Source: Candidatus Nanoarchaeia archaeon (lineage in GTDB: Archaea; Nanobdellota; Nanobdellia; Woesearchaeales; WJIZ01). From it: 64,000 nucleotides of DNA. How positions within the stretch are numbered: the first letter of the stretch is position 1; every line of letters starts with the position of its first letter. Shown piece after piece: positions 3,961 to 45,700 of this stretch. The position numbers were made by a program, and so were the translations under genes. The stretch lies in contig JANQND010000022.1 in NCBI GenBank assembly GCA_028279765.1, forward strand, positions 26,149 to 90,148. Reading direction: 5' to 3'. Below the pieces are notes generated by a model that saw only the letters and a list, made by a program, of their open reading frames with translations, was not told where the DNA came from and made no database searches.

Positions 3961-4002
3961 TTTTTCCAAATATTTTTATATTCTTTTCTTCAAGTAAACT
4001 CT

Positions 4003-6857: not shown

Positions 6858-6880
6858 GCCCTTCAAATTCTAACTAGAAA

Positions 6881-7057: not shown

Positions 7058-7058
7058 A

Positions 7059-7337: not shown

Positions 7338-7413
7338 AAGTATATTTTTTTAATCTATTTCTTTATGTTTTAGAATTGTTAGAAAAAAGAAGGAATAAAA
7401 AAGAAAAAACAGT

Positions 7414-18243: not shown

Positions 18244-18255
18244 GGTGTATACTTC

Positions 18256-19152: not shown

Positions 19153-19190
19153 GTTTCATCCTGCTCTTTGCAAGAGACCTATATACATAG

Positions 19191-20492
19191 CTAAGGAACA
19201 GGAACCTTTCGCAAAATTTCTTCGATAACGCGCTCTGCTTTAATTCCTTCTGCCTGTCCTTCATAGCTAAGTATTAATCGATGGCGCAGCACATCATAAG
19301 CAATGGTTTTGACATGATGCGGAGTAACATAATTTTGGCCGTTGAGTACTGCCTCAGCTCTTGCGGCACTGATTAGCCCTATCGAGCCCCTGGGAGATGC
19401 ACCAAATTCAACATAGCGGCCAAGCCCCACACCATACTTTTTAGGGAACCGGGTTGCATCAATAAGCTTCACGATATAATGCTCCACTTTTTGGTCGACA
19501 TACACTTTTTTTACATCATCTTGAATCTTAAGGATTAAGTCAGGGCTAAGAACTGCCTTGACTTTAAAATTTTCAAAGGAATGAGTGGAAATATTTGAAC
19601 GCAGTATACGCTGTTCCTCATCAATATTCGGGTATCCCATATAAATTTTGAAAAGGAAACGGTCAACCTGAGCTTCAGGCAGGGAATAGGTTCCAACGTT
19701 TTCCAATGGGTTTTGGGTTGCCATAGTAAAAAAAGGAAGAGGGATAGGAAACGACTCTTTTGCGATGGTTGCTTGCTTCTCCGCCATAGACTCCAGCAGG
19801 GCAGACTGAACCTTAGGCGGAGCCCGGTTGATTTCATCTGCTAGGATGAAATTATTAAAGATAGGGCCTTTCAGGGTATAGAATCCTCTCCCTTCCTGAT
19901 AAGTACTGATTCCGATAATATCAGTAGGGAGCAAATCAGGAGTAAACTGAATTCTTGCAAATGAACACCCTGTCGTTTGTGCGAGAGTTCGAATAAGGGT
20001 AGTTTTTGCAATTCCCGGGACTCCTTCCAGTAAAACATGTCCGTCCGAGATAAGCGCACGGATGAGCCCTGTAATTGCCTCATCCTGGCCCACAAGAATT
20101 CTCTGCACTTCTTTTCTTACAGTAAGAAACAACTTTTGATAACTCTGGATTCGTTTTGAGAAGCTTTTATTATCAAGTATTTCTGCATGCTGCTCCTCAA
20201 CGATGTGCTCCTGCTGTGTATCCTTGATTAAGTCAGCTACTTTGCTAATCTCTTCTTTTTCAAGAGAGGGGTCCGGTTCCTGATGCTCTTCCTGCGGCTG
20301 CTCAGGCTGTGCTTCCTGTTCATCAACCTGTTCAATTTGCTCATCAATCTCTTCAATTTTCTCCGAAGATGAGGGATTATCTCCTTTGTTAAGCATATCC
20401 TGTTCTAATTCCAGTTTTTTTCGCAGAAGATCAAGCTTAGAAGATGACGAAGCCTTTGAAACCCTCTTTTTTTCACTCTTCACTTTCCCCAT
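19191..20492 (-). CDS. MoxR-family AAA+ ATPase
   Basis: Walker A GHVLLEGVPGIAKT; LLPTDIIG; Walker B ILADEINRAPPKVQSALLE. Unusual roughly 110-aa acidic coiled N-terminal extension. Confidence 0.85.
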   Translation of the reverse strand: MGKVKSEKKRVSKASSSSKLDLLRKKLELEQDMLNKGDNPSSSEKIEEIDEQIEQVDEQEAQPEQPQEEHQEPDPSLEKEEISKVADLIKDTQQEHIVEEQHAEILDNKSFSKRIQSYQKLFLTVRKEVQRILVGQDEAITGLIRALISDGHVLLEGVPGIAKTTLIRTLAQTTGCSFARIQFTPDLLPTDIIGISTYQEGRGFYTLKGPIFNNFILADEINRAPPKVQSALLESMAEKQATIAKESFPIPLPFFTMATQNPLENVGTYSLPEAQVDRFLFKIYMGYPNIDEEQRILRSNISTHSFENFKVKAVLSPDLILKIQDDVKKVYVDQKVEHYIVKLIDATRFPKKYGVGLGRYVEFGASPRGSIGLISAARAEAVLNGQNYVTPHHVKTIAYDVLRHRLILSYEGQAEGIKAERVIEEILRKVPVP

Positions 20493-30900: not shown

Positions 30901-31618
30901 CAAGGCTGTCTTCTACATCAGCATCGGTTGCGTTAATCGTGATATTCCAAAGGATATTTCGGGGAAGGGTGTAATTGGAGCCAATAGTAATAACAGGAGC
31001 AGATTTGGCATTGCAGCCCTTAGTAATCTTTAAGCTAAGAATATCTGTTGAAACATTATTATTGCATCCGCTTCCATCATCAACACTGATGTTAAAATGG
31101 CTTGTTCCTAATGCAGTGATATTCGGAGTGAAGTTAATAACTCCTTCTGATACCGTAATGTTGAACAGTGTTGCATTATCACTAAAGGTAAATATCGTCC
31201 CAAGGTTGTTATCACTTACCGTCACATTGCAATAGTATTCATCAGTCACGTTTACAGTAGTAAGGCAGGATGATAGATTTACCTGAGGAGGATCATTTAC
31301 GCAAAGCGAAGTAACTCCGGTAACGACAAAATTTCCTGTCACAAGATCAGGTCCGCCTGCTGAATTCGCAGAGGTAAGTAAGTAGAGGTTGACGCCAACT
31401 GAAAAGAGTACAAAAAGGAGTACCAAAGCAGCAAGAGAGTTATTAGAAACTGTCTTTCTCTTCTCAGAGAAAGAAAGATAGTCACGAATAATAGACTGGA
31501 CCCGAAGAGGAGTATATCCTTCGCGCAGAAGAGACTCTTCGATAGCCTGAAGAGAATACCCTTTAGCACGACAATGAGCCACGTATTTTCTCAGTCCGAA
31601 TCTACCTTTCTCTTCCAT
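21917..31618 (-). CDS. giant polytopic surface protein (3233 aa) with four TM segments and two ectodomains
   Basis: 9.7 kb uninterrupted ORF. N-terminal about 60-aa cytoplasmic domain. TM1 (about 31370–31430). Ectodomain 1 of about 490 aa with Ig-like repeats, a (Gly)12 tract and an EGF-like Cys-rich block. TM2 (about 29840–29900). Roughly 210-aa basic cytoplasmic loop. TM3 (about 29160–29220). Ectodomain 2 of about 2380 aa with coiled coil, the shared SDVHYTNIL module and Ig/cadherin-like repeats. C-terminal TM plus RRRG (21917–22000). Dense N-x-S/T sequons. Confidence 0.8.
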   Translation of the reverse strand: MEEKGRFGLRKYVAHCRAKGYSLQAIEESLLREGYTPLRVQSIIRDYLSFSEKRKTVSNNSLAALVLLFVLFSVGVNLYLLTSANSAGGPDLVTGNFVVTGVTSLCVNDPPQVNLSSCLTTVNVTDEYYCNVTVSDNNLGTIFTFSDNATLFNITVSEGVINFTPNITALGTSHFNISVDDGSGCNNNVSTDILSLKITKGCNAKSAPVITIGSNYTLPRNILWNITINATDADVEDSLVFSVVEENYTSFSSFESFMQFDSSTGALNITPSIVHIGDHILNITVNDTSNCTADHTSVLVNITVVANNTAPEYTGNPDSLDASWNEDTTIIAYNLDGYFNDSDGDCLQYTVSHLTASPQITVTVDNNINPLGINCPASHFVTLSSAANWFGVETVCYQANDTIDSSKIVCANYTVTNVPETVTIPSTAGGGGGGGGGGGGAAKLLRCEEKWHCSRWSACGSGSAARNCTDINRCGTTKFQPNLTRSCEFIEHCSDGIQNFGEQGVDCGAGCPNECVTCFDSVLNCHAQDDGSELCEEGIDCGGPCRPCNLGEYIEQVQVEQLTPQSEEGLSLWRIVLAILIILLALFLFLRRRKHKRKPEGEKPRHSHLKELLRTLNGISFVHALFDRMKNAPGALKNMLLKPSGKSRTLITRASEDVIARLNDIILKAPKENRNTLTKQLSALMRGWYKKRFDRQFTLAYEGTTSSEKRKEDFVRHRVEPFFDRLIDIEYSAKAISAADLKKVAQEAISLIEFTIRKKTSAVAVDSVYQANKKSSKQASQKTALSKKKKPSKGNRNRTALVLLLMISLFGSMYLFTNPAITGSVIFEDSGGVVFGDTSLMLDTTFDDSGQVDLGISGSLDSLTLSGALSRDAKIRVYAGSAQERVLVLDSSLVAPRNYTLIRESQDITFSENKKAIDMVLRYHGGTPWDPDNNGIVSTQGVVDFSVSDTRFSWDRDVGNLCTLWTVSHDSGNEYSCYGSTSCCGLVELRPERDQWDDTFYLNREKEGAGEQNVVSAKVISANYSLDPLNPYSEIIESEAERLSAIFQPEMVPFTDICVESCSLPSFSAGTLMIDVTSGSILLSNATYKRSSLISNSAPQLSTIETIVMNANSSYSFDLGLYATDADNDDLYYHAYDAQGVSLTIEDSLVTISADPGFEGSAYTFFIVNDSKQSTVSDIVEILVAANVSDSAAIPNTNRSDDATILSAVSEELSTDSSADSFAPASPVEIGKPVLWKRSLVATDSEDNVEVGLPAEAFNVSVYTINGGQKQEVSPSNLAVITDDVQKNFTEFAQETTSKHLNQQIKRKLKQKTNDPEDVALLSELKVMYEQKQDILADQLIGETGQKKKESAQKQITILTAQISKLDQRITLLEEKEKTETKKSSGKASKGLSSHRSSAQPVLYPDTTLDSVSTSIEEIEESALVKALESEELISSETETRLLINESAQEIEVHYTTEAPLSEEENISDSRKKIVISSDVHYTNILAYTAIDEKPLDAITLYHIINDTRLQVSFEGIDENSNGLIDSIKWIVPHLSNQTYEVDITVLNVQSYPTVGGNWTVEFTTLGRANLTLSAIADTNYGNALPDDLVPLSLMCGDDTLSYVWDGGKSASYEGYECNDTGYWTVQVLTPGIHNQQFTFGNTTAYANNYASYNTTEGNISIWDSTDSGTWYSTNEIIFYANYTNSTAIANGTCEISFNFTGSFQDTENMSYHGGSVPWNFSRKIPYKGVSYFNVLCTNATMPTLNATDSIIINNSAPVFNKTEGKLPSVACIEDIPCSYNISQYANDSNINDVLSYDYTAGSISNLTSHSDCSNCWSFDFTNGNLTVYVTTSDHAIEGPWSPQLTVKDSDNAPDSATLDISMTAVNDVPVFTQPSGNTITDATTETLYTYQLTATDEEDSSLSIFNYSILSCTRPYDPGNCTGLTLIMNLTTGLINFTPVNDDTGNYTLNISTTDSNSGVGWKLVNFTVNDINNPPVFDYVCDSSRSALEDIAFSCTINATDQENNTLTFSTNVSWFNLTTVSSKEVLANFTAENQHVGNHTINLTVSDGSFSVNTYFNFTVNNTNDVPGLFNISNQIAIVGLLYSYNVTGFDDDFNQPGNSFHNNSENLTFGTNSTFFSAVKVNETASLISFTAAEGEKGNYTILMNVTDRSATRSNVTFVLTIRNNTAPVFDYVCDDNTTIQENQTHRCHVNATDLERDSFTFSVNTSWFIVNSTSGNVSFVANDTEVGNHTLNFTVTDQYGLSSSRLVNFTVNNTPEHPTLNIGNLTAPESSLFSHNLTKNVSDEDSLTPLGEAFYFTLNNTFSGRLILNATSGMINFTPINDDVGVFHMNITVNDSDGLYDEIIVNFTVLNVNQLPTIHYWCQDNATAVEDQPYTCQINATDPDAGDIVTITAEVLGGGNWFLVNSSGFVSFTPTNAQVGNHSINITASDGYDNTSRILNFTVNNTNDAPILGLIGNLLLTEDTPFNLTINATDNDTLTPDNDTLTFATNSSFFVINASSGFFTFTPNASDVGNYSITFNVTDSAGVSDNETINLTIDFFNDAPVLTPIPNLIADEGSFFSYDANATDEEDAQSLLRFRTNASADIFVINDSTGYFNFTPNSTFIGVHVINLTVNDTMGKETTQLFNLTIRAFNTAPNITQIRPYGTPVSTSTVFAFANRSDFPMNTTSITLAENTSILFNHTSTDANGDSINTSWYKDGTLLTNSKTSNYTYELGFLEAGAHNLTLVVSDGRGLNDTFVWNITVNNTNRAPVFGTIHHDQHSEFSSGTDNSTNTTTGGILLASGTGSYATYGEFVSAAIDIGPLFNSFYSPIGFTTISWSAITPNGTNASMQTRTSQNGNNWNNWSTVALNRSYLNSSGEQIVSENATYIQYKIILETNDTSITPNVSSIKIHYILPDLSLSQGTTNQNWIDLDDYFSDLDTDDTVVFTAAGNSNVIITLNNDSHVVGVEAPTDWFGTETIYFIANDSHDTTTSNNLSVTVEQADQTSSVEFIFVSTTKTSFKTRTRTVTEPRYLELISPAHLTTFDNDTVVAPIVLKNNAEVILTGIDLQATTNSDKVKTWFSENSISSLGPGQSEELMLFMQWQGTIGEFDVIVNATSRDPDYTDSSIISVTGIARIENNRSIEENQIEFVRDLLNNNPECLELTELLSEAEASFDQGNLEESRNLINFVIEGCRYLVTNPREIEQPVPIEQREGDLFKLVSGVLLLLLFIALVVIVSLIVRRRG
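30299..30334 (-). repeat. in-frame (GGY)12 trinucleotide tract encoding Gly12 in giant protein
   Basis: Plus strand reads gccaccgccaccgccgccaccgccaccaccgcctcc; it translates on the minus strand to GGGGGGGGGGGG immediately before the Cys-rich block. Confidence 0.85.
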
Positions 31619-32895: not shown

Positions 32896-34197
32896 TTATT
32901 TTCCTGATAATCGTTTATGCACTGTTTTCCTTAGGGAAGTAGAAGAAAGTTCATAAGGCTTCTTGCGATGAACAGCGATATACCATAAAAAATTAACAAC
33001 AAAAAGAACTGCAAGCGCTATTAGCCCGATAAGCATAGCATTATCACGAGCAGAAGAAGGATGTTCGGCGTCTCCGGTAAGCTGAACTTGTACATGCTTT
33101 TGTTCAAGCTTGTCAAAATAGTGTACAACAATATCAATATCATAATTTCCCGCCAAAAGGCCATTTTTCTCCCAGAATGCAGTAAGCCTTCCTTTCCCCC
33201 ACGGTTCAAGGTCAAGAGCGCTTGTCTTAAGAGTATCAACTATCACTCCATTTTTTCTGATTACCAGCTCCGCATAGACCTGATCAAGAATATCGTTCCA
33301 GCTACTCTGAACATCAATGAAAATCTTAGCTACCGGTCCGCTCAAATCTGCTTCCACGTTCAATATTTCAATATCAATATCTCCCAGGCGCAGTTGAGAA
33401 CTGGTGTAGGCAGGCTCCGTACCTCCGTAATCTGTAGAAGCACTAACATGATATACTCCTGGCCTTAGATTATGTGTTTTCCATTGAGCAGAAAGTTCTT
33501 TGCGTTCAGCCGGGCGGAGCAAAGACAGTCGCTCGGATTGTAGCTCAGCAACCGGATTTCCGTCTGGATCCTTAATAGAAATATCCGCCTGCAAGCCGAG
33601 TAAGTCCTCTGTTCCGAAATTATGAGTATCAACAAGAATATCAATTTCCTCTCCTATCGTCGCAGTTTTGGGATCCAGTGACAATGCTGTTTCAAGGAAT
33701 TTTCCGGTATTAGGAACACGTACCTTAACAACAAATCCGATTGCTGCAAAGGCAGTAGCAATACTGGGATAATTTCGCTTCTCTTCCGCTGTGAGGTACT
33801 GTTCAATCACAATCATTGCGCGATGATCTCCCGGAGGAAGGTCTGAGGGAATGTCAACACGAAAAGGAACCGCGGTAGGATCTTTCATGTAAGTGCGGTA
33901 TTCCTTCATACCATTGATGAGAATAGAGTCCTTTAACTTCCCCGTGGAATACATCCTGACGTTTTTTGATTCGCGCGGTAAAACAGTAAATTCTCCTTCC
34001 TCAAAATCCTGTCCGATATACACAACAGGAAAGCTCGGAGGGGTTACTCCCATGCCGGTTGAATAAACAACAGCAGGGCACACAAATAACAGCATAGCAA
34101 GGAGTAGGAATGTCCTATAACATCTACATCTCCTATCACGACTCCCCTGCATTCGCTGTACATACCCAGCCAGGTTTTTCAATATCGTTCGTATCAT
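32896..34197 (-). CDS. membrane-anchored multi-beta-sandwich surface protein (COG1470-like), paralog A
   Basis: N-terminal signal/TM (FLLLAMLLFVCPAVVYS). Several beta-rich domains. C-terminal TM plus basic tail (LIGLIALAVLFVVNFLWYIAVHRKK). Segments NYDIDIVVHYF and WNDILDQVYAELVI match paralog B at 35545–36786. The probable true start is the internal Met at about 34152. Confidence 0.65.
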   Translation of the reverse strand: MIRTILKNLAGYVQRMQGSRDRRCRCYRTFLLLAMLLFVCPAVVYSTGMGVTPPSFPVVYIGQDFEEGEFTVLPRESKNVRMYSTGKLKDSILINGMKEYRTYMKDPTAVPFRVDIPSDLPPGDHRAMIVIEQYLTAEEKRNYPSIATAFAAIGFVVKVRVPNTGKFLETALSLDPKTATIGEEIDILVDTHNFGTEDLLGLQADISIKDPDGNPVAELQSERLSLLRPAERKELSAQWKTHNLRPGVYHVSASTDYGGTEPAYTSSQLRLGDIDIEILNVEADLSGPVAKIFIDVQSSWNDILDQVYAELVIRKNGVIVDTLKTSALDLEPWGKGRLTAFWEKNGLLAGNYDIDIVVHYFDKLEQKHVQVQLTGDAEHPSSARDNAMLIGLIALAVLFVVNFLWYIAVHRKKPYELSSTSLRKTVHKRLSGK

Positions 34198-34212: not shown

Positions 34213-34890
34213 CTAACAGCTCGCATCGCTACATGCTGCAAAAAAAGTTACTGCCTGCTGCTTTGTTCCGGGGCCCTCTGAGAGGGGAACAGTAACGTTC
34301 ACGCCAAATGACGCGTTATCCTGTCCATCCGTATGTAATAAGTCTATAGCAAGCTGTCCTCCTCCCTGTCCAGTCCATAAGGGATAATAAGTACTATTAC
34401 AGTCAAACCCTGTCTGTGTTGAATTGCACTTCACCATAAAACAAGTATGCTCATTAGTTGCCCAGGCATCAAGACATCCACCGCTCGAATCATTAGTACT
34501 AAAAGGGCCTATACCCCGTTCATTTGCCGTCTGGTTTCCTCCAGGCTGAGTGCCATAAATTTCTAAACTAATATTTACTCCACCATTATTATTCACGCGC
34601 CACCAATCATCAACACCCTCATCATCACTATAATTAGTCTGGCCCGTAGTTAGCGTACCAAGTTCAATAGCACTTGAGTTCAAATCCCCTGTTACTTCAG
34701 AGAGAGTAATGGATGCTGCATTAGTCACGGTTAGGTTCGCTCTGCCTACCTGCGAAGTCGCAAATCCGGTAATGCTGGCAATCCCGTCAGGAAAACTAAA
34801 TCCGTTAACGCTTGCAAAAGCCCCTATTGAAGTAAGAGCCATCGAAATAGCAACAATAACAATCAGGGTAGTATCAGATATTTCGGCCAT
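34213..34890 (-). CDS. secreted/anchored Gly-Asn-Thr-rich protein with 6 Cys
   Basis: 225 aa. N-terminal hydrophobic anchor (TTLIVIVAISMALTSIGAFA). Low-complexity G/N/T-rich body. C-terminal Cys pairs. 15-nt gap to the next gene, so an operon context. Confidence 0.5.
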   Translation of the reverse strand: MAEISDTTLIVIVAISMALTSIGAFASVNGFSFPDGIASITGFATSQVGRANLTVTNAASITLSEVTGDLNSSAIELGTLTTGQTNYSDDEGVDDWWRVNNNGGVNISLEIYGTQPGGNQTANERGIGPFSTNDSSGGCLDAWATNEHTCFMVKCNSTQTGFDCNSTYYPLWTGQGGGQLAIDLLHTDGQDNASFGVNVTVPLSEGPGTKQQAVTFFAACSDASC

Positions 34891-34943: not shown

Positions 34944-35597
34944 TTATTTCTGCTTCCTCTTCTTCTTTGCTCTGCTCACCACTGTCCAGATTGTTCGGTC
35001 ATCCTTGCCTATCAGCCGGGCAATCTCCCGATTACTCATTTCGTGCTCCTCTCTGAGATAAATACACAAGTGCTCTAAAATACTCAAGGACCGATCAGCA
35101 AAAACGCTAAGGGGGACAAGTAATTGATTCTCTGCAAGCCTGCCAAACTGAGCTTTGAATTGTGCAGGGCTAATTTTTTGCTGCGCGTTGTGCAGTGTAG
35201 TCCAGATAGTAGTGGGATCCCTATCCAGAAGAGCAGATATTTGTTGCTGGCTCAAAAGGAATTTTGTGTAGATATAGAGAACAAGTGCTTCAAGAGGGCT
35301 CAGGGAAGTATTAAATAGCCCAACAGGGACACTCACATATTTCTCCCGTTGATGCAGGAAGGTAAAAAGCTCCCTAATGCCAAGATCAGAAGCAGAAGAT
35401 AAAGAAGAGAAGAGGTTCTCTAATCTATTCAGCCGTTCCTGTTCCTCTACATATACCTTTCCCAGGCGCTTTCTCTTTTCCTCTTCAACAATGTGCATCA
35501 TGAAAACAGCGTATTCCTCCTTATTCCAAGATAAACTACTAGAGTCACTTTGTACTGCCTCCTCTCTTCGAGCGGACAAAATAAATGAACCATCCAA
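34944..35597 (-). CDS. transcriptional regulator with two tandem sigma-70 region-4/LuxR-like HTH segments
   Basis: Two repeated units: LEALVLYIYTKFLLSQQQISALLDRDPTTIWTTLHNAQQK and LSILEHLCIYLREEHEMSNREIARLIGKDDRTIWTVVSRAKKK, followed by a basic KKRKQK tail. The true start is probably the internal Met (MMHIVEEE, about 35501), which avoids overlap with the upstream gene. Confidence 0.55.
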   Translation of the reverse strand: MDGSFILSARREEAVQSDSSSLSWNKEEYAVFMMHIVEEEKRKRLGKVYVEEQERLNRLENLFSSLSSASDLGIRELFTFLHQREKYVSVPVGLFNTSLSPLEALVLYIYTKFLLSQQQISALLDRDPTTIWTTLHNAQQKISPAQFKAQFGRLAENQLLVPLSVFADRSLSILEHLCIYLREEHEMSNREIARLIGKDDRTIWTVVSRAKKKRKQK

Positions 35598-36786
35598 GGT
35601 TGATGAGAATCAATACCGCAACTAAGACCGTAAGAACAGACTCTCTCCCGGTTGTCGGGCTGGCAACTACCTGTGCTGTTATACCCAGGTCTGTTCTGAT
35701 AGAGCCAATGTTAACTTCTGCCTGCACTATTTTCTCGGTCACGCGCTGTGCATAATGAATAAGCAGGCGAATATCATAATTGCCGACAAGGATACCTTCC
35801 GTGTCCCAGTACGCCTTCAGTACTCCAAGACCCATAGCAGGAATTGATGTTGTTGCAGTCTTAAACCGGGTATACTCAGTACCCTGCGCATCAGTGATAA
35901 TCATCTCACCATACACATCATCAATTTGCTCGTTCCACTTGCTCTCTAAAAAGATATCAAAAGCAGCAACATCCCCTAAGGTAAAGTCTTTCACATCAAT
36001 GCGCTTGATATCAATATAGAGGTCTCCGACAGTAACATCATCTTCAACGACAAGGCGCTTATCATCATAGATAATCTCTGCTACGACATGATATTTTCCC
36101 GGATTTACCTGCGCAGGCCAGCTTGCCGTAAGCTTTTTCTGCTGTTTGCTCGGGATGCTCACCTCATTAGTCTCAATTACGGCAATCTCCTCATAAGTAG
36201 CTCCAAGAATTTTGATTCTGGCATGGGCTTTAGCAATATCCTGTGAGCCAAAATTCATAACGGAAATAGCAAACTGGACAGGCTCTCCGGGATTCTTTGC
36301 GTCAGAATAAAGCTGTGCTTCTGCATACTTTCCGGGATACAGTACCCTCACCCACAGTTCCGTAACAACCGATGCTGTCGCACTAACAATAGTCCCGTCA
36401 TCAGTACCGAAGCTTGAAGGATATTCGGTTACTACCAGCTCACTCTTATGCACACCGGGCCTCTCAAAGCTCTCCGGAAGCGTCAGCTTATACCGGGCAA
36501 TCTTGCTTTCTTCTCCCTGAGAAATCGAGACCAGAGAGTCCTGAATGCCAATATATTCCGAGAGTTCTCCGCGTGCATAAACCAAAGCACGGATATCAGA
36601 TTCTGCACTGCTTCTGATTTTAAGTTCAAGATCATACTCTCCGTTGGGTTCAAAATCAACAACCTTACGGATAGGAGAAACACCGATCGCACTAACCGTA
36701 GCGCTAAGTAAAAAAAGCACCGCAATCCAGAGCAGTGCGCTCTTAGCTACATCATAGTTACGATGCATTGTAATACCTCGCTTCAA
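35545..36786 (-). CDS. membrane-anchored multi-beta-sandwich surface protein (COG1470-like), paralog B
   Basis: Signal (LLWIAVLFLLSATVSA). Beta-rich body. C-terminal TM plus basic tail (VLVAVLILINLGWFIYFVRSKRGG). Its start overlaps the stop of the giant ORF by 11–29 nt. Collinear similarity to paralog A (NYDIRLLIHYA vs NYDIDIVVHYF). Confidence 0.65.
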   Translation of the reverse strand: MKRGITMHRNYDVAKSALLWIAVLFLLSATVSAIGVSPIRKVVDFEPNGEYDLELKIRSSAESDIRALVYARGELSEYIGIQDSLVSISQGEESKIARYKLTLPESFERPGVHKSELVVTEYPSSFGTDDGTIVSATASVVTELWVRVLYPGKYAEAQLYSDAKNPGEPVQFAISVMNFGSQDIAKAHARIKILGATYEEIAVIETNEVSIPSKQQKKLTASWPAQVNPGKYHVVAEIIYDDKRLVVEDDVTVGDLYIDIKRIDVKDFTLGDVAAFDIFLESKWNEQIDDVYGEMIITDAQGTEYTRFKTATTSIPAMGLGVLKAYWDTEGILVGNYDIRLLIHYAQRVTEKIVQAEVNIGSIRTDLGITAQVVASPTTGRESVLTVLVAVLILINLGWFIYFVRSKRGGSTK

Positions 36787-39700
36787 TAGTGATTAAAGTA
36801 TTCTTATCTCCCGCACTCTCTCCCGAGGGAACAATGACACTCAATTCAGCCTCTGCAAGATCACTGGCATTAGAAAAATTCAGGCTTCGTGCTACATATT
36901 TCTGAGCAGAAGAGAGAGGAGTGAACAACTGAGTAGAGTTAGACCAGTTAAAAGAAGAGGATTCTGAAGAATTTCCCGCAGCAAACTGGAAGTAGACGGT
37001 GTTCAGTGCGACAGTGTCCCAAAGAGGGGTTGCATTGATCAGAGTATCAACGAATACATTGCCGTCATTTTCAAAGGTAAGTGGCTGAGGGGAGTTTGAA
37101 GTCGTATTGTATTCAGTATTGTGGAATACTGTTCCAAATTCTGCCGTGCTTGAACAGCCCCCTACACAATTAAGATCAATACTAATAACTCCTTCAAGAG
37201 TGAAATTAAAGCCTCCCGACCACGTCGAGTAATTATAGCCGTCAAACGCGCGGACCGACCAGTTGTACCAGGTATCAATACCCAGAAGCCGTGTTGAAGT
37301 GTAGCTTGGAGAAGTAGGGTTAGCAACAGTATTCACTCCCACGCATTCCAAGCCGTTGCCTGTACAGTCAGGACTCTCTTCAATAACAATCGTATAGTTT
37401 ACCGTATCCCCATCAGCATCGTAGCCGGTTGTCCAGTTGAAGAAAGTATAGCGATCAGTAATAGTGGAGAGATTAAGCGGAGCGCTTAAATTAACTGGTT
37501 CGGGAGGAGTGTTTTCAACCTCAAAGGTGAAAATATCAGTAACGTTGGTAACTCCTGCAGAGTCACTGACATAGATTCTCCATCCGATCGTATTTCCCCG
37601 CGAAAGGTTTATCGTCTTGGTGACATTGCTTTGATTAATTAGTCCGGTAAGTGCGACAGCAGTATCGTTCTGCCAGGTTCCGTTTGTTCCATTCCAGGAG
37701 AAAATATAATTACCGAGGCCGGAGTCATCGCTCCAGTTAACAAAGAACCATTTTTGCTCACTTATTTTTCCTGGAGCATTCGTTTGGTTCGCATTCCAGG
37801 AAGGTGCTCTGATATCAACCTTATAAGAGGTGAAATGAGAGACATTGAACACTAAAGTACTTGCAGTAAAACTCAGGTTATGGCAGAGTGGAGCACTGCA
37901 GGTAGTATAAATTCCGTCATCGTCAGAATCTACCTGAATAGTCGGGCTGGCAACGGTAATTCCATACAGAGTAACATTTGCCGAAGTATTCAGGCCCCTG
38001 TCCCTGCTGGAATTCACAAAGATATGGTTTGAAGAAAGTGAAATCATGTTACTAAGGTTTTCTCCGCTTGCTACAATGGACTGGTTAAGGAAGAGGAGGA
38101 TCCCGTTAGAGTCATCTGAAATACGCAGGCTGTTGTTCACAAAGCTATAGCTGGCAATAGAGCCGTCAGAAACAGCATAATCTCTGAGAACATCTGAGAA
38201 TGTATTGTTAATGAGAGCATGTTGAGTTCCTGAAGAAACGTTAATTCCCTCCTTAACTGTTTGAGTTATGCTCAGATTTTCAAGTCTTGTAGCATTGGAT
38301 CCATTACCAATAAGTATACCGTGAATAGAAGCGTTGCTTGCAATTACGTCTGTTATGTTGTTATCATTGCCAATTACGGAGAGGAGATGATAGCTTGAGA
38401 TATTAACAACTCCTCCTTCAATGGAATTAGAACTTCCAATAAGAGAAATGCAGCTCGAGGATGTTGAAGTGCAATTAATAAAGGTATTTTTAGTGAAGAC
38501 GTTAAAGTGCTCTGATTGATCTGAGTTAAATCCGAGTACATTTGATTGCAAAGTATTTCGCTCATAGGTATTATGAGAACTAAAAGAAGAATTAATACCT
38601 GCAGAGCTAGATAGGATGGTATTGTTGGAAAGTGAGGTGTAATTAGTATTTGAAAGAGTGATAGCAGCAGAGCCCATGGTGGTGAATACATTATCATGTA
38701 CACTAGCATTTGGACTGGAGGAGAGAAGAATACCAACCCCATTTGATTCAAAAGAGTTGTTGACCAGGGAAAGAGCGCTGCTTGAATCTATGTAGACGCC
38801 ATAAAGCGTATCAGAGTGAAGAGAAGAAGACCTGACCGTAACATTATCAGAGTTTTCTGTAAGGTATATTCCATAAAGGTTATCGCTGGAATTGCTATTA
38901 TTAATAAAGGTATCAGTACTCAACTGCAGATATATTCCTGAGTTGCTATTTCTCGTAGAGGTCATGTTCTGAATAGTACTCTGTGAATTATTGAGGAAGT
39001 AGATTCCATGTGAAAAATTGTGTATTCTCCCATCTTTTAGAGTGGATAAATTCAAGCCGTCTGAGAGGACCCCATATTCTAACGCGTCTCCATCTCCTGT
39101 AATGGCATGGCCGTTAAAATCAATCGTGACGTTATTCGCCTCAATAGTAAAGCAGGTATCTGTAGTAGTAATATTTGTCTGCAACGTGTAGGTTGTGTTT
39201 TCTTCGTTTAGGATTGTGCAGGCAAAGAGATCAGTAGCCTCGCTTGCCTTATAGGTAGTAAAGCTGGATACGTTGAACCGCAGGGTTCCACCTGAGTAAA
39301 CCAGCCCGCCGCACTGGACAGAGCTACAGTCTGCGAAAATACCATCGTCGTTGAAATCAACGCTGGCCTTAGGTGATGCAATCTCTAAGTTATAAATCGT
39401 GAGATTGGCACTGGTATTAAAGTTGGGATCCATGCTAGTATTGACAAAAATGCTGTTTGGGGTGAGTTGAACAAGCCGAGTGAAGTTAGTTCCGAAAAGA
39501 TAAAGAGAAGTGTTTATCCATCGAACAACAGCATCGTCAGTGCCATAGGATAAGGAGGAACCATTAAGTTGGAATTCAGAAATTTCAGATTTAAGGAATA
39601 TAAAATCCAAAGGTGTGCCTGTAACGGAATTATTAATGATAGAAGTATAATTAGAATTAGTAACATTGAAGCCGTTGTTCCCGGCATTAGTAATGGTCAG

Positions 39701-42700
39701 TTCTGTGAATCTGTTTGAAGTAGAGGCATTTGTTAAGAGCACTCCACTCCTTGAAGGAGCTAAAATCGCTTCCCGGATGAAATTATTATTCGAACTGGAA
39801 CTAAGATACAAGCCGTAGTCACTATGAGTAAAAGTATTCTGGCTTAACGTATTAGAATTTGATCCACTAACTAAATATACCCCGGCAGATAAGCTGTTTG
39901 GCGCGGTAAGATTAATAGTGTTCAGCGAAATATTGGTACCAGTGGTGCTATTTTGGGCTATTCCAAATACACTGAGATCTGATGAAGAAGCTGAAGAAGT
40001 GATATTAAGAGTGTTATTATAAACAGTATTATCCTGGATCAAGGAGCCAAAGTTTTGCACGAGATAGATTCCATAAGCTGAACCAGTTGAGGAAGCCTCA
40101 ACAGTATTGTCGACAATAGAGTTTAAGCTGATAGTAGTTCCAAGTGGTTCAGTACCATTTCCAAGGAAATAAACTCCATATGCTGATCCAGAAGAAGTTG
40201 AATTGAGCACAATGCTATTAGATTGTATAATATTATTCTGAGCAGGATCTCTAGAGGAGAATAGATGTATTCCATAAGCTGAGGAGCTGGCTAATACATC
40301 AACAGTGTTATCAGTGATGGAATTGCCACTGGTTTCCAAGTCATCATTCCTCACATAAATTCCATATCCTGATTGGGAAGCAGAGTAAATCGATAGGGTG
40401 TTATTGTTCACAATATTATTGCTACTCGCATTATTAACTGAGGAGAGATAGATTCCGTAAGAATTGCTGCTAGATTCAGTTGAGTTCCATCTAATCGTAT
40501 TGTTAGCTATCAAGAGACCCGTTGAGTCTTGAGTATAAATTCCGTATGCAGGATTCAGTACGGATGAATCAAGAGTGTTGTTAACGATGAAAGAATCCCG
40601 AACGTTTACAAGATTGATGCCTCGCTCGAAACCAGAAATTAAAGGAATATCTCTAATCGTTAGATTATGTCTCGTACCAGTCGTATTAATTGCGGTACCT
40701 GACCCATTTCCGGTAATAGTAAATCCGTTTCCGCTTAAGGAAATATTATCAGCAGCGATCAATAAGCAGTTGCCCGCACCAGAAATGTTCCGGAGCAAAG
40801 TATAATTCTTTCCAGGGATATCTAAGGTATCGCCGCAGGCAACAGTCGACTCCATAGTAATAGTTACGAAGTTTGGATCAACACGATTCGAAGTAATATT
40901 AGCAATAACTGAAGTTGTTTCTAAAGGGGATTTAATAGAAGTAAATGTATGGTTGTTGTACCAGGAATAGGCACTATCATCAGTCTGGTAGTATTCTGTA
41001 ACATTGAAGGACACCAGGCCAAGGAGTGACGTGTTTGTATTAAGATATACTATGCTGCTAACATTCGATACAGATACGTTTGCAGAGGGGACAACACTAG
41101 TATTAGTTTGGTTCACAAGGACATCAACGTACCATTTACGGATGATTTCTTCAGTTCCGGTAGAGCTAAAGTCAATGTCAGCATAGCTTACATTAAGGAA
41201 GGTGTTGTTTGTTGCCTCAGAGGATCCGTCTTGGGTATGCACATACACATCCTGCGCACCGGTGTTATTCATGATGATATCCTTGAACAGGTTATGAGAG
41301 CTAACGGATACACCGCTATGGCCATAAATATAGAGCCCATAGTTCTGGCTATTGTTGATAGTAATGCCTTCAAAGAAGCTATTCTCAGATCGCGACAAAT
41401 ACAGGCAGCCTTCGCTTGTGGAGGTGCAGTTCCACAAATCAATATTACGTGCAGTAGTGTAATCAGCAAGGTTAACGTACAGGCCAGATTTGTTATTAGA
41501 GTACAAAGTAGCGCCGTCTACGTGGCTGTTCTCAACAGAGTTAAGATAGATTCCATAATCAGTATTCAGGTTTGCAGTAATCGAAGAAAAGTTAGTGTAG
41601 TGCGAATTTGAACCCACAGAGAATCCTGAGCCACCGTTTTGGTTTGAGGTTAAATTATAGAAGGTGTTGCGTGTCGAAGTGAGGAGGGAGACACCGTGAG
41701 AGCTCGCACGGGTAACGCTCAGGTTTCCAATAGTATTCTCCGAACTACTACCTACCAGGATGCCTATTGATCCCCCTTCAAAGGTGCTTGCAGAAATATT
41801 ATTGTACTGTGAATTTGAGAGGTGTATTCCTGTTGAGGAACCAATCGAAGTGAGGTTTTTGACGGAAGTGTTGTACACTGTATAAAGGGATACACCCACT
41901 TCATTTTCATTAACAGACACATTGCTGATTACTGAAGCGTTGCTGCGGTAGAGATAAATTCCTGGAGAGTTGCTATGACTTAAGTTCAGATCAACTATAG
42001 TAATATTATTGCATTCTGTGCAGGAGATAAAGCCAGCATTGGGTGTTGTCTGGGGGCTATAGGTATAGTCAGAGAGAGATTCATTAATATATACAGCGTA
42101 AGAATGATCGACAGTGATTAGGCGGTGAGTGTTCCCACTTCCGCCAAAATAGTTCAGGCCGATCTCAAGGTTGTACGTGTTATTACTCAAATTTGCATTG
42201 ACAATAGAATTGTTCGATCCAAAGTCTAGGACAAGCCCTACTGAATTATTCAGCGCTACAATACCATCAAAGGTGTTATTGAGCGCTGAAGTAAATGCGC
42301 CTACATAGACTCCGGGGCCGGTATTATGCCTGACAGTAATATTGTAAAATTTATTGTAATTAGCGCCAATAAACAAAGAGATTGCTCCGGAGGAATAAGT
42401 GTTGTAGTCTGCAGTAAAGTTTGTTAGTGTGTTATGTGTCGAATCAGCGATAAAAAAAGCATATGTATTCGAGCTTGAAATGATATCAGTATAATTATTG
42501 TGGCGAGAGCTAGAGGTGGGATAGAATCCGGTTGACTGGCCAGAGGATTCTACATTTTCAAAAAGGTTTGACGAAGACGCAGTAAGGTATGCTCCATAAG
42601 TATTTGCACTGATATTCGTGTTAAGAACCTGAGAAGCACTTACATTATTGAGATAGACTCCGTATCCACTGCCCTCCGTATTTTCTGTGATTTTGCTATT

Positions 42701-45700
42701 ATTGATAAGGGTTCGATATCCCTGTACATGAATGCCATAATCAATATTCTTTCGAATAGTGGCATTTTCGACCAAAGTATCATTTCCAAGGATTTGCATT
42801 CCTCCATAAGCCTCTTCCAAAGTGGAGTCTCTAAACTCAAAATTAGAAGTATTAACCTGGAAAATAAATTCATAAGTCTCGTTAGTGGCATTTATGAGCG
42901 ATTGGTTCACAGACATGCTTGCGGAATCCTGTACATAAATTCCTACATTTTGGTCACCGGTGGCATTCATGCGAACCTCACAATCCAGAACATTAAAGGT
43001 TCCGGTAACGGAGATATTGAGGTGTGCAACAATGCAGTCAGTATACGAACTGGAGCAGGAGGAGACAACATCATCATTGTTGACGGTACTATACAGTGAA
43101 CTGCAGGTCTCGGTTCCGGTAATATTAATCCAGTCGTTGGAGAAGGAAACACTACTGGACTTATACGTAGTAAAGTGAGTAACGTTAAAGAGCAGAATTG
43201 AAGATGCGAAACTCAGGTTCTGGCATATGCCTGAAGGGCAAAGGTCAAAACTTCCGTCATCCTCGAAATCAACCAATATGCTCTGGACAATTGACCCGAG
43301 GTTATTCAAAGTGATGTTTGCACTGGTATTCAGTCCTGGGTCTTTAGTCGAATTTACGAAAGCGCTATTTGACGAAATACTAATGACATTACTGAGATTA
43401 TCTCCAAAAGCATAGAGTGAATCGTTTATCCATCTGATTTTTCCGTGGGTGTTCACGATCTCAAGAGAGGAGCCGTTGAATTGGTACTCAGTAATTTCGG
43501 AGTCCTCAACATAATAATCCAAAGGAGTAGAGGAAAAGGTATTATTGATAATGATTGTATTAGTTGAGTTAGTAATATTAAATCCACTCAGGTCAGAATC
43601 CTGTATATCAAGACCCTTAAAGAAATTTTGTTGGGACGAGCTTCCTAAATAAACTGCATTCTTTTCCATGTGCTTGAATGTACCACCAGTGAAATTGTGG
43701 CTGCTTGCATTGGTCAGGTATATACCATAGGTAGAGTTGTACATTTCATTTTCAACAAAAACGTTTCCTGCATTAGAATTCTGGCTATAGATGCTTGCTG
43801 TCAGTGTCGATGGTGCAGTAATATTAATCGTGTTGAGAGAAACATTTCCACTTTGCTTTGTTTCAAGCATATAAATTCCGAAGGTATTAAGTGTCCCGAC
43901 TGAATTGGAAGAGGAAATGTTGATCGAGTTATTGTAAACAGTGGAGTAGGCTTGAGATGCACCTATATTATTGAAAAGAATTCCTTGGGCATTACTTCCA
44001 GCAGACTCGAGGTAATTATGTTGCATAGTTGTTGAGTCTATCGATGCAGAACCGGTGGTAGCCAATACAATTGAGTAGGCGGATGCATCTTCAGCATAAA
44101 TAGAGTTGGAATCAATGAGGGTATTATTCATTGATGTTCCCGAAGGATTGAAGAGATAGACCCCAAAAGCACTGGAAGTTCCGTCAACAGCAATATGATT
44201 TTTGATTATTTCATTGGAGTCAATAGAAGATCCTGCAAGGCCATCTAAATAAACTCCGTAGGAAACAGACGAAGAGAGCTGAATGGTATTGTTCGCAACG
44301 GTATTATTACTGGAAAGGGCAGAGCCAGTCTCGAAAGTAACACCAAAAGCAAAGGTACCAGTTGAAGAGTTCAACAGATTATCCAGTATCCTGTTATATC
44401 GATTAACTCCCCCCGCGGTTCTAAAATACACCGGATAACCAGACCCAACGCCTTTGCCATCAAGAATAATAGTATTATTAGTGAGATTATTATATGATGA
44501 AAGGACAGTAGTGTTGATATAGATTCCGTGCGTAGTAGTGGAGAGAGAGGAATTCCTAGTAATAGTATTATTTTCGACAAGGTTATAGTTCGAATCTTTT
44601 AGATAAAGGCCAGAGAGGTCGCTGCCCGTGGATATAAGAATGGAGTTATTTAAGATCAATGAATTATTGACTCGCTCAAAATAAACTCCTCTACTAAGGT
44701 TAATTATTCGATTAAAATTCTTCACCGTAAGGTTCATTCTACTACCGGTATTATTGATTCCATAATCCAGACCGGAACCATCTCCTGTTATGGAATAGCC
44801 ATTGCCATTAACAGTGACATTGTCAGCATAGATAGTAAGGCAGGTTCCGCTGGTAGTCAGGTCATTCTGAAGAGTGTATTCTGTGTTTGGATCCTTGAGT
44901 GGCCTGCAAATAGTAACATTAGTCCCGGTCTCAAGGCTTACTTCCCGTAGTTCAGTAGAGTTTACGAAGCCAGAGCGGTCCTGCGTGTGAGCCCTGAAAG
45001 AATATGCGCCGTTTGTAAGGTCGGTGAAGTTTCTCGCAAAGTAGTGAGTGGACTGATTAGCGTACAGCATTTCGATTTCTACAGGAGTAAGTGTCCTGTT
45101 GAAGATCATCAGGTCATCAAGAGTCGCATTAAGGTAAGCATCGGTAGCGCCTCCTCTTCGACCAATAAGCAGAGGTTGAGTGTTAGGGACAAGCCAGGTT
45201 ACATCACCACATTCCCCAATTTCTTTCCCGTTCACATAATGGGTGACATTCCCTGAGATAAAGGTCATGGCCCCATGCATCCACTCATCCATATCAAATT
45301 GAGTTGTAGTTATCGTACAGGCTGTTGCACCGTTATTTGAGCCATATATCATCGCCCTATCACCAGAGTAGGATTGATGGTGTGTATAAATTCCAAGCTG
45401 ATAGGCACCAGTAGTATCTGCCGTAGTAGGTGTCTTGCTGAAGACATATGAAGTTGCTGTACCATCACTTTTCTGATAAGGATACGCCCACCAGGAAACC
45501 GTCCAGTTATCGTAGAGATCTAAGGAATCATGATCTTCAACTTGCAGATAGTCAGTAGACGGGCCGTCACTGAAGCGTACACCTTTTCCAAAGTATCCAT
45601 CATCTACCTGCACTGCAGAGCCGTACTTTGTAACAGTGTGATTATAGCTGCTATAATCCTGGAAATCTCCGGAGCCGTTAACATCCATTCGAAGCCATAG

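Follow-up and report, generated by a model that had tools for sequence, protein, structure and literature searches.

A giant open reading frame on the minus strand

The window (the whole stretch of 64,000 nucleotides that was analysed) carries an uninterrupted giant open reading frame on the minus strand, 36758 to 63817, which is 9019 aa long when counted from a TTG and is still open at the window edge (9,080 aa within the window). An independent Logan assembly has the gene called at 9,553 residues; the window lacks ~473 of its N-terminal residues. The region described here (36758-44941, minus strand) forms the C-terminal ~2,730 residues of the giant. Its modules follow an array of lectin-type LamG modules in the order [β-helix 1 + APD1], [β-helix 2 + β-rich tail], [β-helix 3 + APD2] and [β-helix 4 + APD3], and end in a conserved FN3/Ig-like cassette of three domains; APD denotes a separate domain of ~125 aa. 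An earlier note on this DNA had let the β-helix and FN3-like region begin at 45300; this holds from 44941 downwards, the first ~125 aa (45300 to ~44941) being the last LamG module and a linker. Along the chain the features are as follows (↓ marks a predicted scissile bond).

43538..44941, minus strand: module 1 β-helix, aa 6293-6760 (Pfam Beta_helix 2.3e-11, NosD 8.4e-11)
43145..43537, minus strand: APD1, aa 6761-6891, ending FNVTHF↓TTYK (family HMM E 4e-52)
41258..43144, minus strand: block 2 β-helix, aa 6892-7520, matched in two halves (Beta_helix 5.6e-14/1.2e-17, NosD 1.7e-13/1.4e-16)
40868..41257, minus strand: β-rich tail adjoining block 2, aa 7521-7650 ('KWYVDVLVNQTN...')
39629..40867, minus strand: module 3 β-helix, aa 7651-8063 (Pfam NosD 1.4e-19, Beta_helix 1.3e-15)
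39239..39628, minus strand: APD2, aa 8064-8193, ending FNVSSF↓TTYK (family HMM E 2e-50)
38201..39238, minus strand: module 4 β-helix with ~22-aa coils, aa 8194-8539 (Pfam Beta_helix 6.1e-23, NosD 3.1e-22)
37820..38200, minus strand: APD3, aa 8540-8666, ending FNVSHF↓TSYK (family HMM E 2.5e-49)
37508..37819, minus strand: tail domain 1, a β-sandwich with motif FSWNGTNGTWQNDTAV, aa 8667-8770 (AF2 model; conserved in 18 homologs)
37193..37507, minus strand: tail domain 2, FN3-like, with invariant NW..D.D.D and YNWSVRA.DG, aa 8771-8875 (homolog comparison, AF2, Foldseek)
36761..37192, minus strand: tail domain 3, a larger β-sandwich with invariant NDGNV and VP..E..G.K, aa 8876-9019 (homolog comparison, AF2)
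36758..36760, minus strand: stop codon of the giant ORF (ORF analysis)

Ser (12%), Asn (10%) and Thr (10%) give the giant an extreme composition, with 455 N-x-S/T sequons observed against 200 ± 11 expected. These sequons, conserved Cys pairs and the signal peptides or C-terminal transmembrane segments present in relatives identify the giant, from its sequence, as an extracellular protein, and the sequon excess indicates that it is probably heavily N-glycosylated. Archaeal informational genes are present, and the genes downstream of the giant are the same in two assemblies. At the closest locus, in Candidatus Woesearchaeota DPANNHV_H2.bin.75, these downstream genes are conserved at 61% and 42% identity; one protein with an APD carries the name Candidatus Nanoarchaeia. 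We assign the host to a Woesearchaeota-like DPANN archaeon, of symbiont type and with a putatively small genome.

Four right-handed β-helix blocks

That the C-terminal third holds four right-handed β-helix blocks, as the earlier note had proposed, is borne out by Pfam: NosD matches it in 9 stretches (E=6e-67, 225.6 bits) and Beta_helix in 8 (E=8.7e-60, 201.4 bits), and each of the four blocks singly exceeds the gathering score (Beta_helix PF13229/NosD PF05048, E 1e-11 to 1e-23). Modules 1, 3 and 4 are mutual paralogs, module 1 sharing 38-50% identity with modules 3 and 4 (self-BLAST). Module 1 opens with an N-cap that contains a Cys pair (VTICRPL..YTL..GTCLTIYADNVTVNGNGYSITG) and has central coils of ~31 aa, a length repeated in its paralog module 3, whose coils carry a YGIYL motif. 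Block 2 belongs to another subtype: its start is rich in Cys, its coils are ~22 aa long and it is not followed by an APD. The β-rich tail that follows it has no Pfam match at E<=1; its candidacy as a further APD copy was rejected by a negative score against the family HMM.

Repeats of about 22 aa had been described throughout. Autocorrelation confines this period to block 2 and module 4, where lag 22 is the top peak (z 4.7 and 5.6, respectively), and finds a peak at 31-32 aa in modules 1 and 3 (z 3.0 and 3.5). The longest block, previously put at about 1000 aa, is in fact block 2, at 629 aa for the helix or 759 aa with its β-rich tail. Module 4, the one block of the four for which a structure was modelled, gives an AF2 model with pLDDT 84.4 and pTM 0.78, rising above 90 over the helix, and its best 50 Foldseek matches in the PDB are all β-helix proteins. 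By this model and its match to solved right-handed β-helices, the repeats are not compositionally biased disorder.

The blocks share with CASH/PbH1 β-helices (tailspikes, pectate lyases, AlgG/AlgE, PfbA) HMM matches above gathering score, the predicted fold and Asn-rich coils carrying an aromatic-Gly-Ile-Tyr-Leu strand. They differ in the ~31-aa coils of two of the four blocks and in having no match to a lyase or hydrolase family or motif. Orthology to NosD, which acts in N2O-reductase maturation, is ruled out (TIGR04247, 59.7 bits against a cut-off of 300), and nosZ, nosF and nosY are absent from the neighbouring ORFs.

An FN3-like tail

The last 353 aa form a conserved cassette that is also found as standalone secreted proteins. 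Its AF2 model comprises three β-sandwiches (pLDDT 77.7), whose boundaries, taken from secondary structure, are approximate. The best PDB matches of the model are FN3 triplets of contactin, fibronectin and neogenin (E 1e-7 to 1e-6), at a low TM-score because inter-domain angles differ. On the window tail Pfam fn3 (PF00041) scores 12.8 bits, short of its cut-off of 25 and not significant (E=0.14); of 18 relatives, three reach fn3 at E 3e-4 and four match Ig_Rha78A_N. The designation 'FN3-like' is therefore valid at the level of the modelled fold, as three FN3/Ig-like sandwiches, and does not extend to membership of the Pfam family. As the earlier note had already remarked, the protein has neither a transmembrane segment nor a sorting signal at its C-terminus: the highest 19-residue Kyte-Doolittle mean in the 9019 aa is 1.28, no NCBIfam model for PGF-CTERM or similar signals matches the tail, and the last 40 aa are hydrophilic, ending ...EARYYNAS. 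Some relatives (P0003, P0005, P0010) have C-terminal transmembrane segments.

A domain homologous to the Nup98 autoproteolytic domain

Some 390 aa of the region are neither β-helix nor FN3 and consist of the three ~125-aa APD copies, exactly three being found in the giant by the family HMM (E 1e-49 to 1e-52). These domains, which come after helices 1, 3 and 4, had escaped the earlier note. The domain belongs to a family of at least 2,653 representative proteins, named 'right-handed parallel beta-helix repeat-containing protein' by NCBI, in which the ~125-aa domain itself is unannotated. The typical architecture is a tandem of [β-helix + APD] modules, with up to 11 copies per protein, ~487 aa apart and each after a β-helix; Beta_helix was also found in 10/10 of the family relatives tested. 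Only 3/520 copies lie within 10 aa of the protein end, so that a downstream chain is essentially always present.

Alone, the window copies have no significant Pfam match (PF04096 at E 0.15, below threshold). When a profile built from 50 diverse APD copies is run against every PDB sequence, the best 11 matches are all Nup98 APD entries (2q5x, E 3.6e-7, 33 bits); Nup116 (0.038) and Nup145N (0.35) come next, and hhalign pairs the family profile with the Nup98 APD at a probability of 94.7% (E 5.8e-8). Real Nup98 scores 34.5 bits against the profile, compared with a maximum of 5.3 bits over 2,000 shuffles, and still scores 34.2 bits when the window copies are left out. Of 50 single copies, 7 match PF04096 (Nucleoporin2), the best at 3.7e-6; three relatives match it when scanned as whole proteins, of which one exceeds the gathering score and another equals it. 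PF04096 is the only recurring Pfam family when the 50 copies are scanned at E<=0.1, and neither ZU5 nor GPS appears in that scan. The link depends on profile depth: with a shallow profile of 7 sequences, a PDB search misses Nup98. In the module 4 model the APD part is of moderate confidence (pLDDT 54-90), and β-helix matches fill the Foldseek list such that 1KO6/2Q5X are not separable. By these profile comparisons, the ~125-aa domain is, at family level, homologous to the autoproteolytic domain of Nup98/Nup145N, which belongs to peptidase family S59 and the ZU5/GPS superfamily.

The homology covers nearly the whole Nup98/Nup145N APD (MEROPS S59, PF04096), including shared motifs (G-S-I-x-F, G-L-N-x-x-A-x-[IV]-T-L and F-x-V-S-x-F↓[S/T]-x-Y), aligned scissile-site residues and a domain placed N-terminal to the predicted cut bond. 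The archaeal family differs in being extracellular, in its length (~125 aa against ~150 aa in Nup98), in a predicted nucleophile that is mostly Thr, in its up to 11 tandem copies each behind a β-helix, and in a C-x4-C pair that is 93-94% conserved here and missing from Nup98. S59 has been described as eukaryotic (PMC1560137), and ZU5, GPS and Nup96/98 have been placed in one superfamily, with ZU5 domains occurring in large bacterial surface proteins that carry adhesion and glycohydrolase modules (Zhang et al. 2012, PMC3482391). The autoproteolytic ZU5/FIIND (PIDD, UNC5CL, NLRP1, CARD8) and GPS-GAIN domains, together with the prokaryotic ZU5 of polymorphic toxins, are also among the nearest counterparts; the SF↓S site of CARD8/NLRP1 resembles the SF↓T of APD2 (PMC3210808). 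The nearest solved relatives of the archaeal APD are Nup98 rather than ZU5 proteins. None of the papers found describes a tandem β-helix + APD architecture in DPANN archaea.

Predicted self-cleavage

The family consensus FNVs[H/S]F↓T.Y aligns onto Nup98 FKVSHF↓SKY, whose scissile site is H862-F863↓S864. From this homology, self-cleavage of the giant is predicted at three bonds.

43169..43174, minus strand: predicted scissile bond 1, F6882↓T6883 (motif HF↓T; aligns to Nup98 F863↓S864)
39257..39262, minus strand: predicted scissile bond 2, F8186↓T8187 (motif SF↓T; compare SF↓S of CARD8/NLRP1, PMC3210808)
37829..37834, minus strand: predicted scissile bond 3, F8662↓T8663 (motif HF↓T; a cut here would free the three-domain tail)

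Across 490 copies, P1 is F in 78% and W in 21% (99% F/W), P1' is T in 80% and S in 20%, giving a hydroxyl in 100%, and P3' is Y/F in 98%. P2 is variable (H 37%, S 29%; APD2 has no P2 His), in agreement with the observations that the Nup98 H862A/Q substitutions barely affect cleavage and that CARD8/NLRP1 are cut at SF↓S (PMC3210808).

By the mechanism that we propose, the invariant Thr hydroxyl of each APD would attack the carbonyl of the preceding buried Phe (an N-to-O acyl shift), and hydrolysis of the resulting ester would cut the chain at the three bonds. Cut in this way, the chain would fall into the LamG array joined to helix 1, then ~1,300 aa carrying helices 2 and 3, then ~476 aa carrying helix 4, and lastly the FN3-like tail of 357 aa. 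These pieces would probably remain non-covalently attached, by analogy with Nup98-Nup96 and the GAIN/GPS adhesion receptors; if so, the new N-terminal T-x-Y strand would stay docked on the upstream APD, and distal units could be separated or shed. GAIN/GPS receptors (adhesion GPCRs, polycystin-1) are likewise adhesion proteins of very large size whose cut pieces stay joined non-covalently. An APD follows each of helices 1, 3 and 4, and the giant therefore probably cuts itself into pieces; it is then probably a self-processing polyprotein and not a single unbroken chain. Our favoured reading, which we hold with somewhat more belief than doubt, is that the region comprises [β-helix + APD] units and the tail of an extracellular, self-processing giant of at least 9,553 residues.

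Discussion

Some domains with the APD fold, such as that of yeast Nup116, do not cleave, and Nup116 is among the PDB matches of the family profile. The ~125-aa domains might similarly share ancestry with the Nup98 fold while acting as C-terminal caps or spacers, leaving the giant as one continuous chain; the [F/W]-[T/S]-x-[Y/F] motif would then be conserved only for the packing of the Phe into the sandwich core and for the completion of the sheet by the next strand. The low frequency of the P2 His and the moderate confidence of the modelled APD are compatible with this. Packing alone would, however, tolerate Ala, Val or Cys at P1', where 490/490 copies retain a hydroxyl; the P2 His is nearly dispensable in Nup98, its place being taken by Ser in the cleaving CARD8/NLRP1 (PMC3210808); and the rarity of terminal copies likewise counts against this reading. 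We regard non-cleaving domains as unlikely, while giving the idea some weight. An artefact, either an N/S/T-biased open frame or several genes fused by assembly or frameshift error, might be suspected from the extreme composition and extraordinary length of the ORF, but is highly improbable given significant domain HMM matches over the full length, confident three-dimensional models (module 4 and the tail), homologs and conserved synteny in other assemblies (with the same downstream genes in two and the full-length gene call in one), and a Nup98 score far above those of its shuffles.

A different question is whether the β-helix blocks are active polysaccharide depolymerases (lyases or hydrolases), breaking down glycans of the host envelope at the giant's tip in the manner of phage tailspikes. 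The best structural matches of module 4 include a GH28 exopolygalacturonase, Klebsiella phage depolymerases, PL6 alginate lyases and tailspikes, and the bacterial surface proteins in which ZU5-superfamily autopeptidases occur have glycohydrolase domains (Zhang et al. 2012, PMC3482391). These structural matches are generic, however (E ~1e-5, TM-score 0.3-0.4), the same list holding the non-enzymatic adhesin PfbA and an epimerase. The catalytic residues of pectate-lyase or glycosidase type that might accompany such a fold did not emerge: at E<=0.01 the region matches no HMM of a pectate-lyase, GH28 or PL family, its matches being the generic Beta_helix/NosD/TIGR03804 ones, and the NosD score is far below its cut-off; the GH28 motif chain NTD..DD..G/HG..RIK is absent, and aa 6293-8540 contain no R-[IVL]-K; the helices are poor in Lys and Arg; and the four blocks diverge too far from one another to reveal a conserved acidic cluster. 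Depolymerase activity, perhaps through some other catalytic arrangement, is thus a tentative proposal, which we lean against. The β-helices are CASH-type carbohydrate-recognition scaffolds, which, to judge from their fold class, most likely attach to glycans on the surface of a host or partner cell and may also cut them. Glycan targeting at the distal tip, as the earlier note envisaged, is plausible if an N-terminal anchor is presumed within the ~473 residues beyond the window.

Giant surface proteins of the ultra-small DPANN archaea are prime candidates for host attachment and are usually described as strings of adhesion domains. The nanohaloarchaeal SVXNc_0300 ('SPEARE') is a giant surface protein of 9,409 aa (PMC10266531). 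Our giant is of the same size class (9,553 aa), comes likewise from a symbiont-type archaeon with a putatively small genome, and has in common with it LamG/Ig-like adhesion modules as well as a presumed part in contacting the host (PMC10266531). It differs from SPEARE giants in lineage (Woesearchaeota-like rather than Nanohaloarchaeota) and in that no VirB4/TraG-like ATPase, AAA or P-loop domain is found by Pfam in the 9,080 aa of the window; the SPEARE description makes no mention of β-helix + APD modules (PMC10266531).

Should the giant cut itself at three bonds, its mature form would be a multi-subunit assembly, whose mass, stoichiometry, shedding and mechanics would have to be read differently, and proteomics should allow for the new N-termini. 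More speculatively, and with more doubt than conviction, the [β-helix + APD] units in thousands of DPANN (Nanoarchaeia) surface proteins may be self-cleaving beads of a non-covalent, force-sensitive chain held by docked T-x-Y strands, and the closest prokaryotic relatives of the Nup98 APD, which would give the latter an ancestry in archaeal surface proteins. Were this so, ~480-aa glycan-binding beads could be shed or exchanged from the distal end on host contact, and this archaeal family, not bacterial ZU5, would be the nearest prokaryotic kin of the Nup98 APD. The APD family provides abundant archaeal relatives of a Nup98/Nup145N domain treated as eukaryotic (PMC1560137), and these bear on the origin of nuclear-pore parts. 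As the domain occurs in at least 2,653 representative proteins, one biochemical test would annotate a large family.

Extent and domain layout of the giant

The giant, a surface protein of the ~9,550-aa class, is encoded by an uninterrupted ORF (window 36758-63817, - strand) of 9019 aa counted from a TTG at 63817, from which residues are numbered here. Beyond that codon (63818-64000, - strand) the frame contains neither stop nor start before the window ends, and in Logan's independent assembly of SRR20820735 the same gene comprises 9,553 residues; about 473 N-terminal residues, including any signal or anchor, therefore lie beyond the window. The first 300 window residues had no relatives in a metagenome protein search. 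Because its composition is rich in Ser (12%), Asn (10%) and Thr (10%) and N-x-S/T sequons exceed those of shuffled sequences (455 versus 200 ± 11 overall; 164 versus 88 ± 8 in the C-terminal third), the sequence fits a heavily N-glycosylated extracellular protein.

Pfam resolves the N-terminal two-thirds as a Laminin_G_3/bacterial-Ig array, with about 15 LamG modules by count of a conserved end-of-LamG motif. A Gly-rich insert (>20% Gly; window 51923-53494, - strand, aa 3442-3965) breaks the LamG array; it holds two ~240-aa repeats with 'GSGGSIWL...ASGG...GGGGRI(R/S)L', matches no Pfam family at E ≤ 0.01 and may be another type of beta-solenoid.

Layout of the C-terminal third of the giant (self-BLAST and piecewise Pfam scans)
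near aa 6250, - strand: end of the last LamG module
aa 6293-6760, - strand: module 1 helix
aa 6761-6891, - strand: first Pfam-less domain (APD1), 131 aa
aa 6892-7520, - strand: block 2 helix, then a 130-aa beta-rich tail without family
aa 7651-8063, - strand: module 3 helix, then the second copy of the Pfam-less domain (APD2)
aa 8194-8539, - strand: module 4 helix, then the third copy (APD3)
aa 8667-9019, - strand: tail, 353 aa

Four beta-helix blocks of two subtypes

The earlier note had read this third as four right-handed beta-helix blocks, and the four are borne out. The translated interval matches NosD (E = 6e-67) and Beta_helix (E = 8.7e-60) in Pfam, each helix singly exceeds the Pfam threshold (E 2e-11 to 6e-23), and an AF2 model of module 4 (pLDDT 84.4, pTM 0.78; helix >90) has right-handed beta-helices as all of its best 50 PDB matches; compositional disorder is therefore excluded. 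Searched as a whole with phmmer, the C-terminal third matched no PDB sequence. The proposed repeat of ~22 aa holds for block 2 and module 4 but not for modules 1 and 3 (31-32 aa), and the longest block, put at ~1000 aa, is in fact block 2, with a 629-aa helix (759 aa including its tail). Modules 1, 3 and 4 are paralogs (about 38-53% identity over caps by self-BLAST) with a common N-cap, C..Y.L....G.C..I.A.NVT..GNG..ITG, from which block 2 is a distinct subtype.

Only generic beta-helix models in Pfam and NCBIfam match the helices. NosD orthology was rejected, with scores far below the cut-off of the NCBIfam model, and a GH28 catalytic motif chain was looked for in the helices and is absent. 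The structural neighbours of the module 4 helix include depolymerases, epimerases and a plain adhesin; enzymatic activity beyond presumed glycan binding seems to us unlikely.

Relationship of the module-closing domains to Nup98

Modules 1, 3 and 4 each close with a domain of ~125 aa for which, taken alone, neither Pfam nor NCBIfam gives a significant match. Only 11 weak matches came from a word-indexed homolog search queried with module 4, the few homologs having exactly this domain in common, and the same type of search with a 50-copy alignment of the domain gave none; the family emerged from an exhaustive HMMER search of representative proteins with a 7-sequence profile. Searching 177,635 distinct PDB sequences with the 50-copy profile placed Nup98 autoproteolytic-domain (APD) entries in the best 11 positions (2q5x_A, E = 3.6e-7), with yeast Nup116 (E 0.038) and Nup145N (E 0.35) also among the matches; the shallow 7-sequence profile did not find Nup98 among PDB sequences. 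Nup98 scores 34.5 bits, its reversed sequence -2.6 and none of 2,000 shuffles more than 5.3; omitting the window copies from the profile lowers the Nup98 score only to 34.2 bits. Comparison of the family profile with the Nup98 APD by hhalign gives a probability of 94.7% (E 5.8e-8). PF04096, the Nup98 peptidase family S59, is matched singly by 7 of the 50 copies, and no other family is matched by more than one copy; the three window copies alone attain only E 0.15. The alignments span nearly the entire domain and superpose G-S-I-x-F and G-L-N-x-x-A-x-[IV]-T-L; in the AF2 model the APD portion has pLDDT 54-90. These comparisons make homology of the ~125-aa domains to the Nup98 APD likely. That the beta-rich tail after the block 2 helix ('NNHTFTSIK') is a degenerate APD was ruled out by a negative score.

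The family motif F-N-V-[S/T]-x-F-T-x-Y aligns on Nup98 F-K-V-S-H-F-S-K-Y, with F-T falling on the scissile F863/S864 (the slash marks the bond here and below). In 490 aligned APD copies, P1 is F (78%) or W (21%), P1' is T (80%) or S (20%), a hydroxyl side chain in every case, and P3' is Y or F in 98%; P2 varies (H 37%, S 29%, G 14%). Characterized autoproteolytic sites require both the Phe and the nucleophile, the Nup98 H862A/Q mutants lose little cleavage, and CARD8 and NLRP1 are cut at SF/S (PMC3210808). At the level of residues, the predicted APD site matches this expectation for a working site.

APD copies of the giant (window coordinates) with predicted sites from motif position
43145-43537, - strand: APD1, F6882/T6883, NVTHF/TTYK
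39239-39628, - strand: APD2, F8186/T8187, NVSSF/TTYK
37820-38200, - strand: APD3, F8662/T8663, NVSHF/TSYK

Just before the predicted bond, N-V-[S/T] forms an N-glycosylation sequon (N in 85% and S/T in 94% of 490 copies), and 93-94% of APD copies have a C-x4-C pair that is absent from Nup98. Both features may be adaptations to extracellular life.

Proposed self-cleavage

We lean towards self-cleavage of the giant at at least one APD site. The P1' Thr would attack the P1 Phe carbonyl, and the resulting N-to-O acyl shift would be followed by hydrolysis; three cuts would give four polypeptides. Cleaved fragments are held together non-covalently in Nup98-Nup96 and in GAIN/GPS receptors, and by analogy those of the giant would probably remain joined in the same way, producing a chain that could come apart at three junctions close to its free end. 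The third cut would release the tail as a unit of approximately the same size as the standalone tail proteins described below. The analogy for the fragments also draws on a superfamily statement about ZU5 autoprocessing domains (Zhang et al. 2012, PMC3482391).

Distribution of the APD family

The HMMER search assigns 2,653 representative proteins to the family at E ≤ 1e-3, and 1,216 at the stricter E ≤ 1e-10; many of these proteins span 2,000-7,600 aa with up to 11 copies each, and one member is labelled Candidatus Nanoarchaeia. From the best 150 of the 2,653 we extracted 520 copies, whose successive spacing has a median of 487 aa, corresponding to one beta-helix per copy, and only 3 of which lie ≤10 aa from a protein end. 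A regular expression meant to find beta-helix N-caps after APDs matched 39 of 511, the pattern being too insensitive. Among ten shorter members scanned, all contain Beta_helix/NosD and three match PF04096 ('Nup98-96 autopeptidase S59'; 4e-7, 2e-6 and 9e-4).

One relative of module 4, the 728-aa P0001 (a single beta-helix plus APD), has an N-terminal archaeal class-III (type IV pilin-like) signal, 'MGPKKAISPIISIILLLLITIAIAG', so pilus-like structures may carry some members of the family. In the Woesearchaeota protein P0005, the motif of the Gly-rich insert is present upstream of the APD.

Comparison with known systems

The claim as first written fits a known class, the DPANN giant adhesins with CASH beta-helices and Ig-like domains, of which the giant would be a very large but otherwise unremarkable member. 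A nanohaloarchaeal giant of 9,409 aa has been described as the largest protein of any cultivated archaeon (PMC10266531); the 9,553-aa giant is of the same size class and would exceed it, and differs in that the portion inside the window lacks the ATPase described in the nanohaloarchaeal protein. What our analysis adds, from sequence comparison, is an abundant, unannotated archaeal family of putative Nup98-type autoproteolytic domains in tandem with beta-helices; for the giant it establishes how the domains are arranged, links the three APDs to the Nup98 family and shows that the site is conserved. Zhang et al. (2012, PMC3482391) had already proposed autoprocessing ZU5-superfamily domains in large surface proteins of bacteria, and S59 is treated as eukaryotic in the literature that we found on it. 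Beyond the ZU5-superfamily statement, our incomplete literature coverage, which makes prior description possible, yielded no described archaeal or prokaryotic Nup98-like/S59 domain, nor any account of the archaeal APD family or its closeness to S59.

The tail as an independent cassette

The FN3-like ending proposed earlier stands in fold but not in family assignment: the tail model (pLDDT 77.7) comprises three beta-sandwich domains, and among solved structures it best matches the FN3 triplets of contactins, fibronectin and neogenin (E about 1e-7), whereas the Pfam fn3 match is not significant (E 0.14). A few tail relatives match fn3 or Ig_Rha78A_N at 3e-4. As had been stated, there is no C-terminal TM or sorting signal: the 9019 aa are free of any hydrophobic segment (maximum 19-residue Kyte-Doolittle mean 1.28), and the C-terminus, ...TIEARYYNAS, carries no sorting signal by NCBIfam and hydropathy.

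The 353-aa tail has 19 homologs (29-58% identity), most aligned over nearly the full length and always forming the end of the protein, with N-W..D.D.D, Y-N-W-x-V-R..D-G, N-D-G-N-V and V-P..E..G.K invariant. Since it also directly follows LamG modules (P0018, from Woesearchaeota, and P0027) and forms standalone proteins of ~420-430 aa with an N-terminal hydrophobic signal/TM (P0022, P0024-P0026 and P0028; contigs up to 33 kb), the tail is, judged from these contexts, an independent functional cassette. In the standalone proteins the signal/TM is followed by a short region of three 'S-x-N-Y' repeats (for example, NYKITSYV..SSNYKTDF..), which is absent from the giant. A downstream ORF (34213-34890) was considered as a relative of tail domain 3 and rejected (BLAST E>0.8).

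A related giant and the surrounding locus

The giant's window neighbours include aIF5B, Trm1, a CTP-dependent riboflavin kinase, DUF460 and RNA cyclase, which mark the source as an archaeon. Candidatus Woesearchaeota isolate DPANNHV_H2.bin.75 (L002) is the only GTDB representative whose locus contains a close relative of the tail (57% identity); its giant ORF (35-11047) ends in the same three-domain tail. The last 3,682 aa of the L002 giant contain no beta-helix or APD, the LamG array joining the tail directly; related giants therefore gain or lose these modules together, and the beta-helix and APD block is thus a mobile module set inserted in a conserved DPANN giant-adhesin locus.

Genes downstream of the giant (window coordinates)
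35545-36786, - strand: protein with N-terminal signal and C-terminal TM, 407/413 aa, no Pfam family, directly downstream of the giant
34944-35597, - strand: HTH (Sigma70_r4-like) protein
32896-34197, - strand: 433-aa paralog of the 407/413-aa protein (27% identity), after the HTH protein

In L002 (11986-13932), a 403-aa signal + TM protein (61% identity) and an HTH protein (42% identity) correspond to the first two. This shared order downstream of both giants points to a conserved operon in which the giant adhesin is accompanied by a membrane partner and a regulator.

Another very large ORF (3,233 aa; window 21917-31618, - strand), containing Big_9, He_PIG and cadherin-like domains, is located some 5 kb downstream of the giant; with both on the same strand, the neighbourhood encodes >12,000 aa of putative surface adhesins. 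Beside the adhesin genes, an operon at window 17308-20492 (- strand) encodes a MoxR-type AAA ATPase, a DUF58 protein and a VWA/BatA-like protein.
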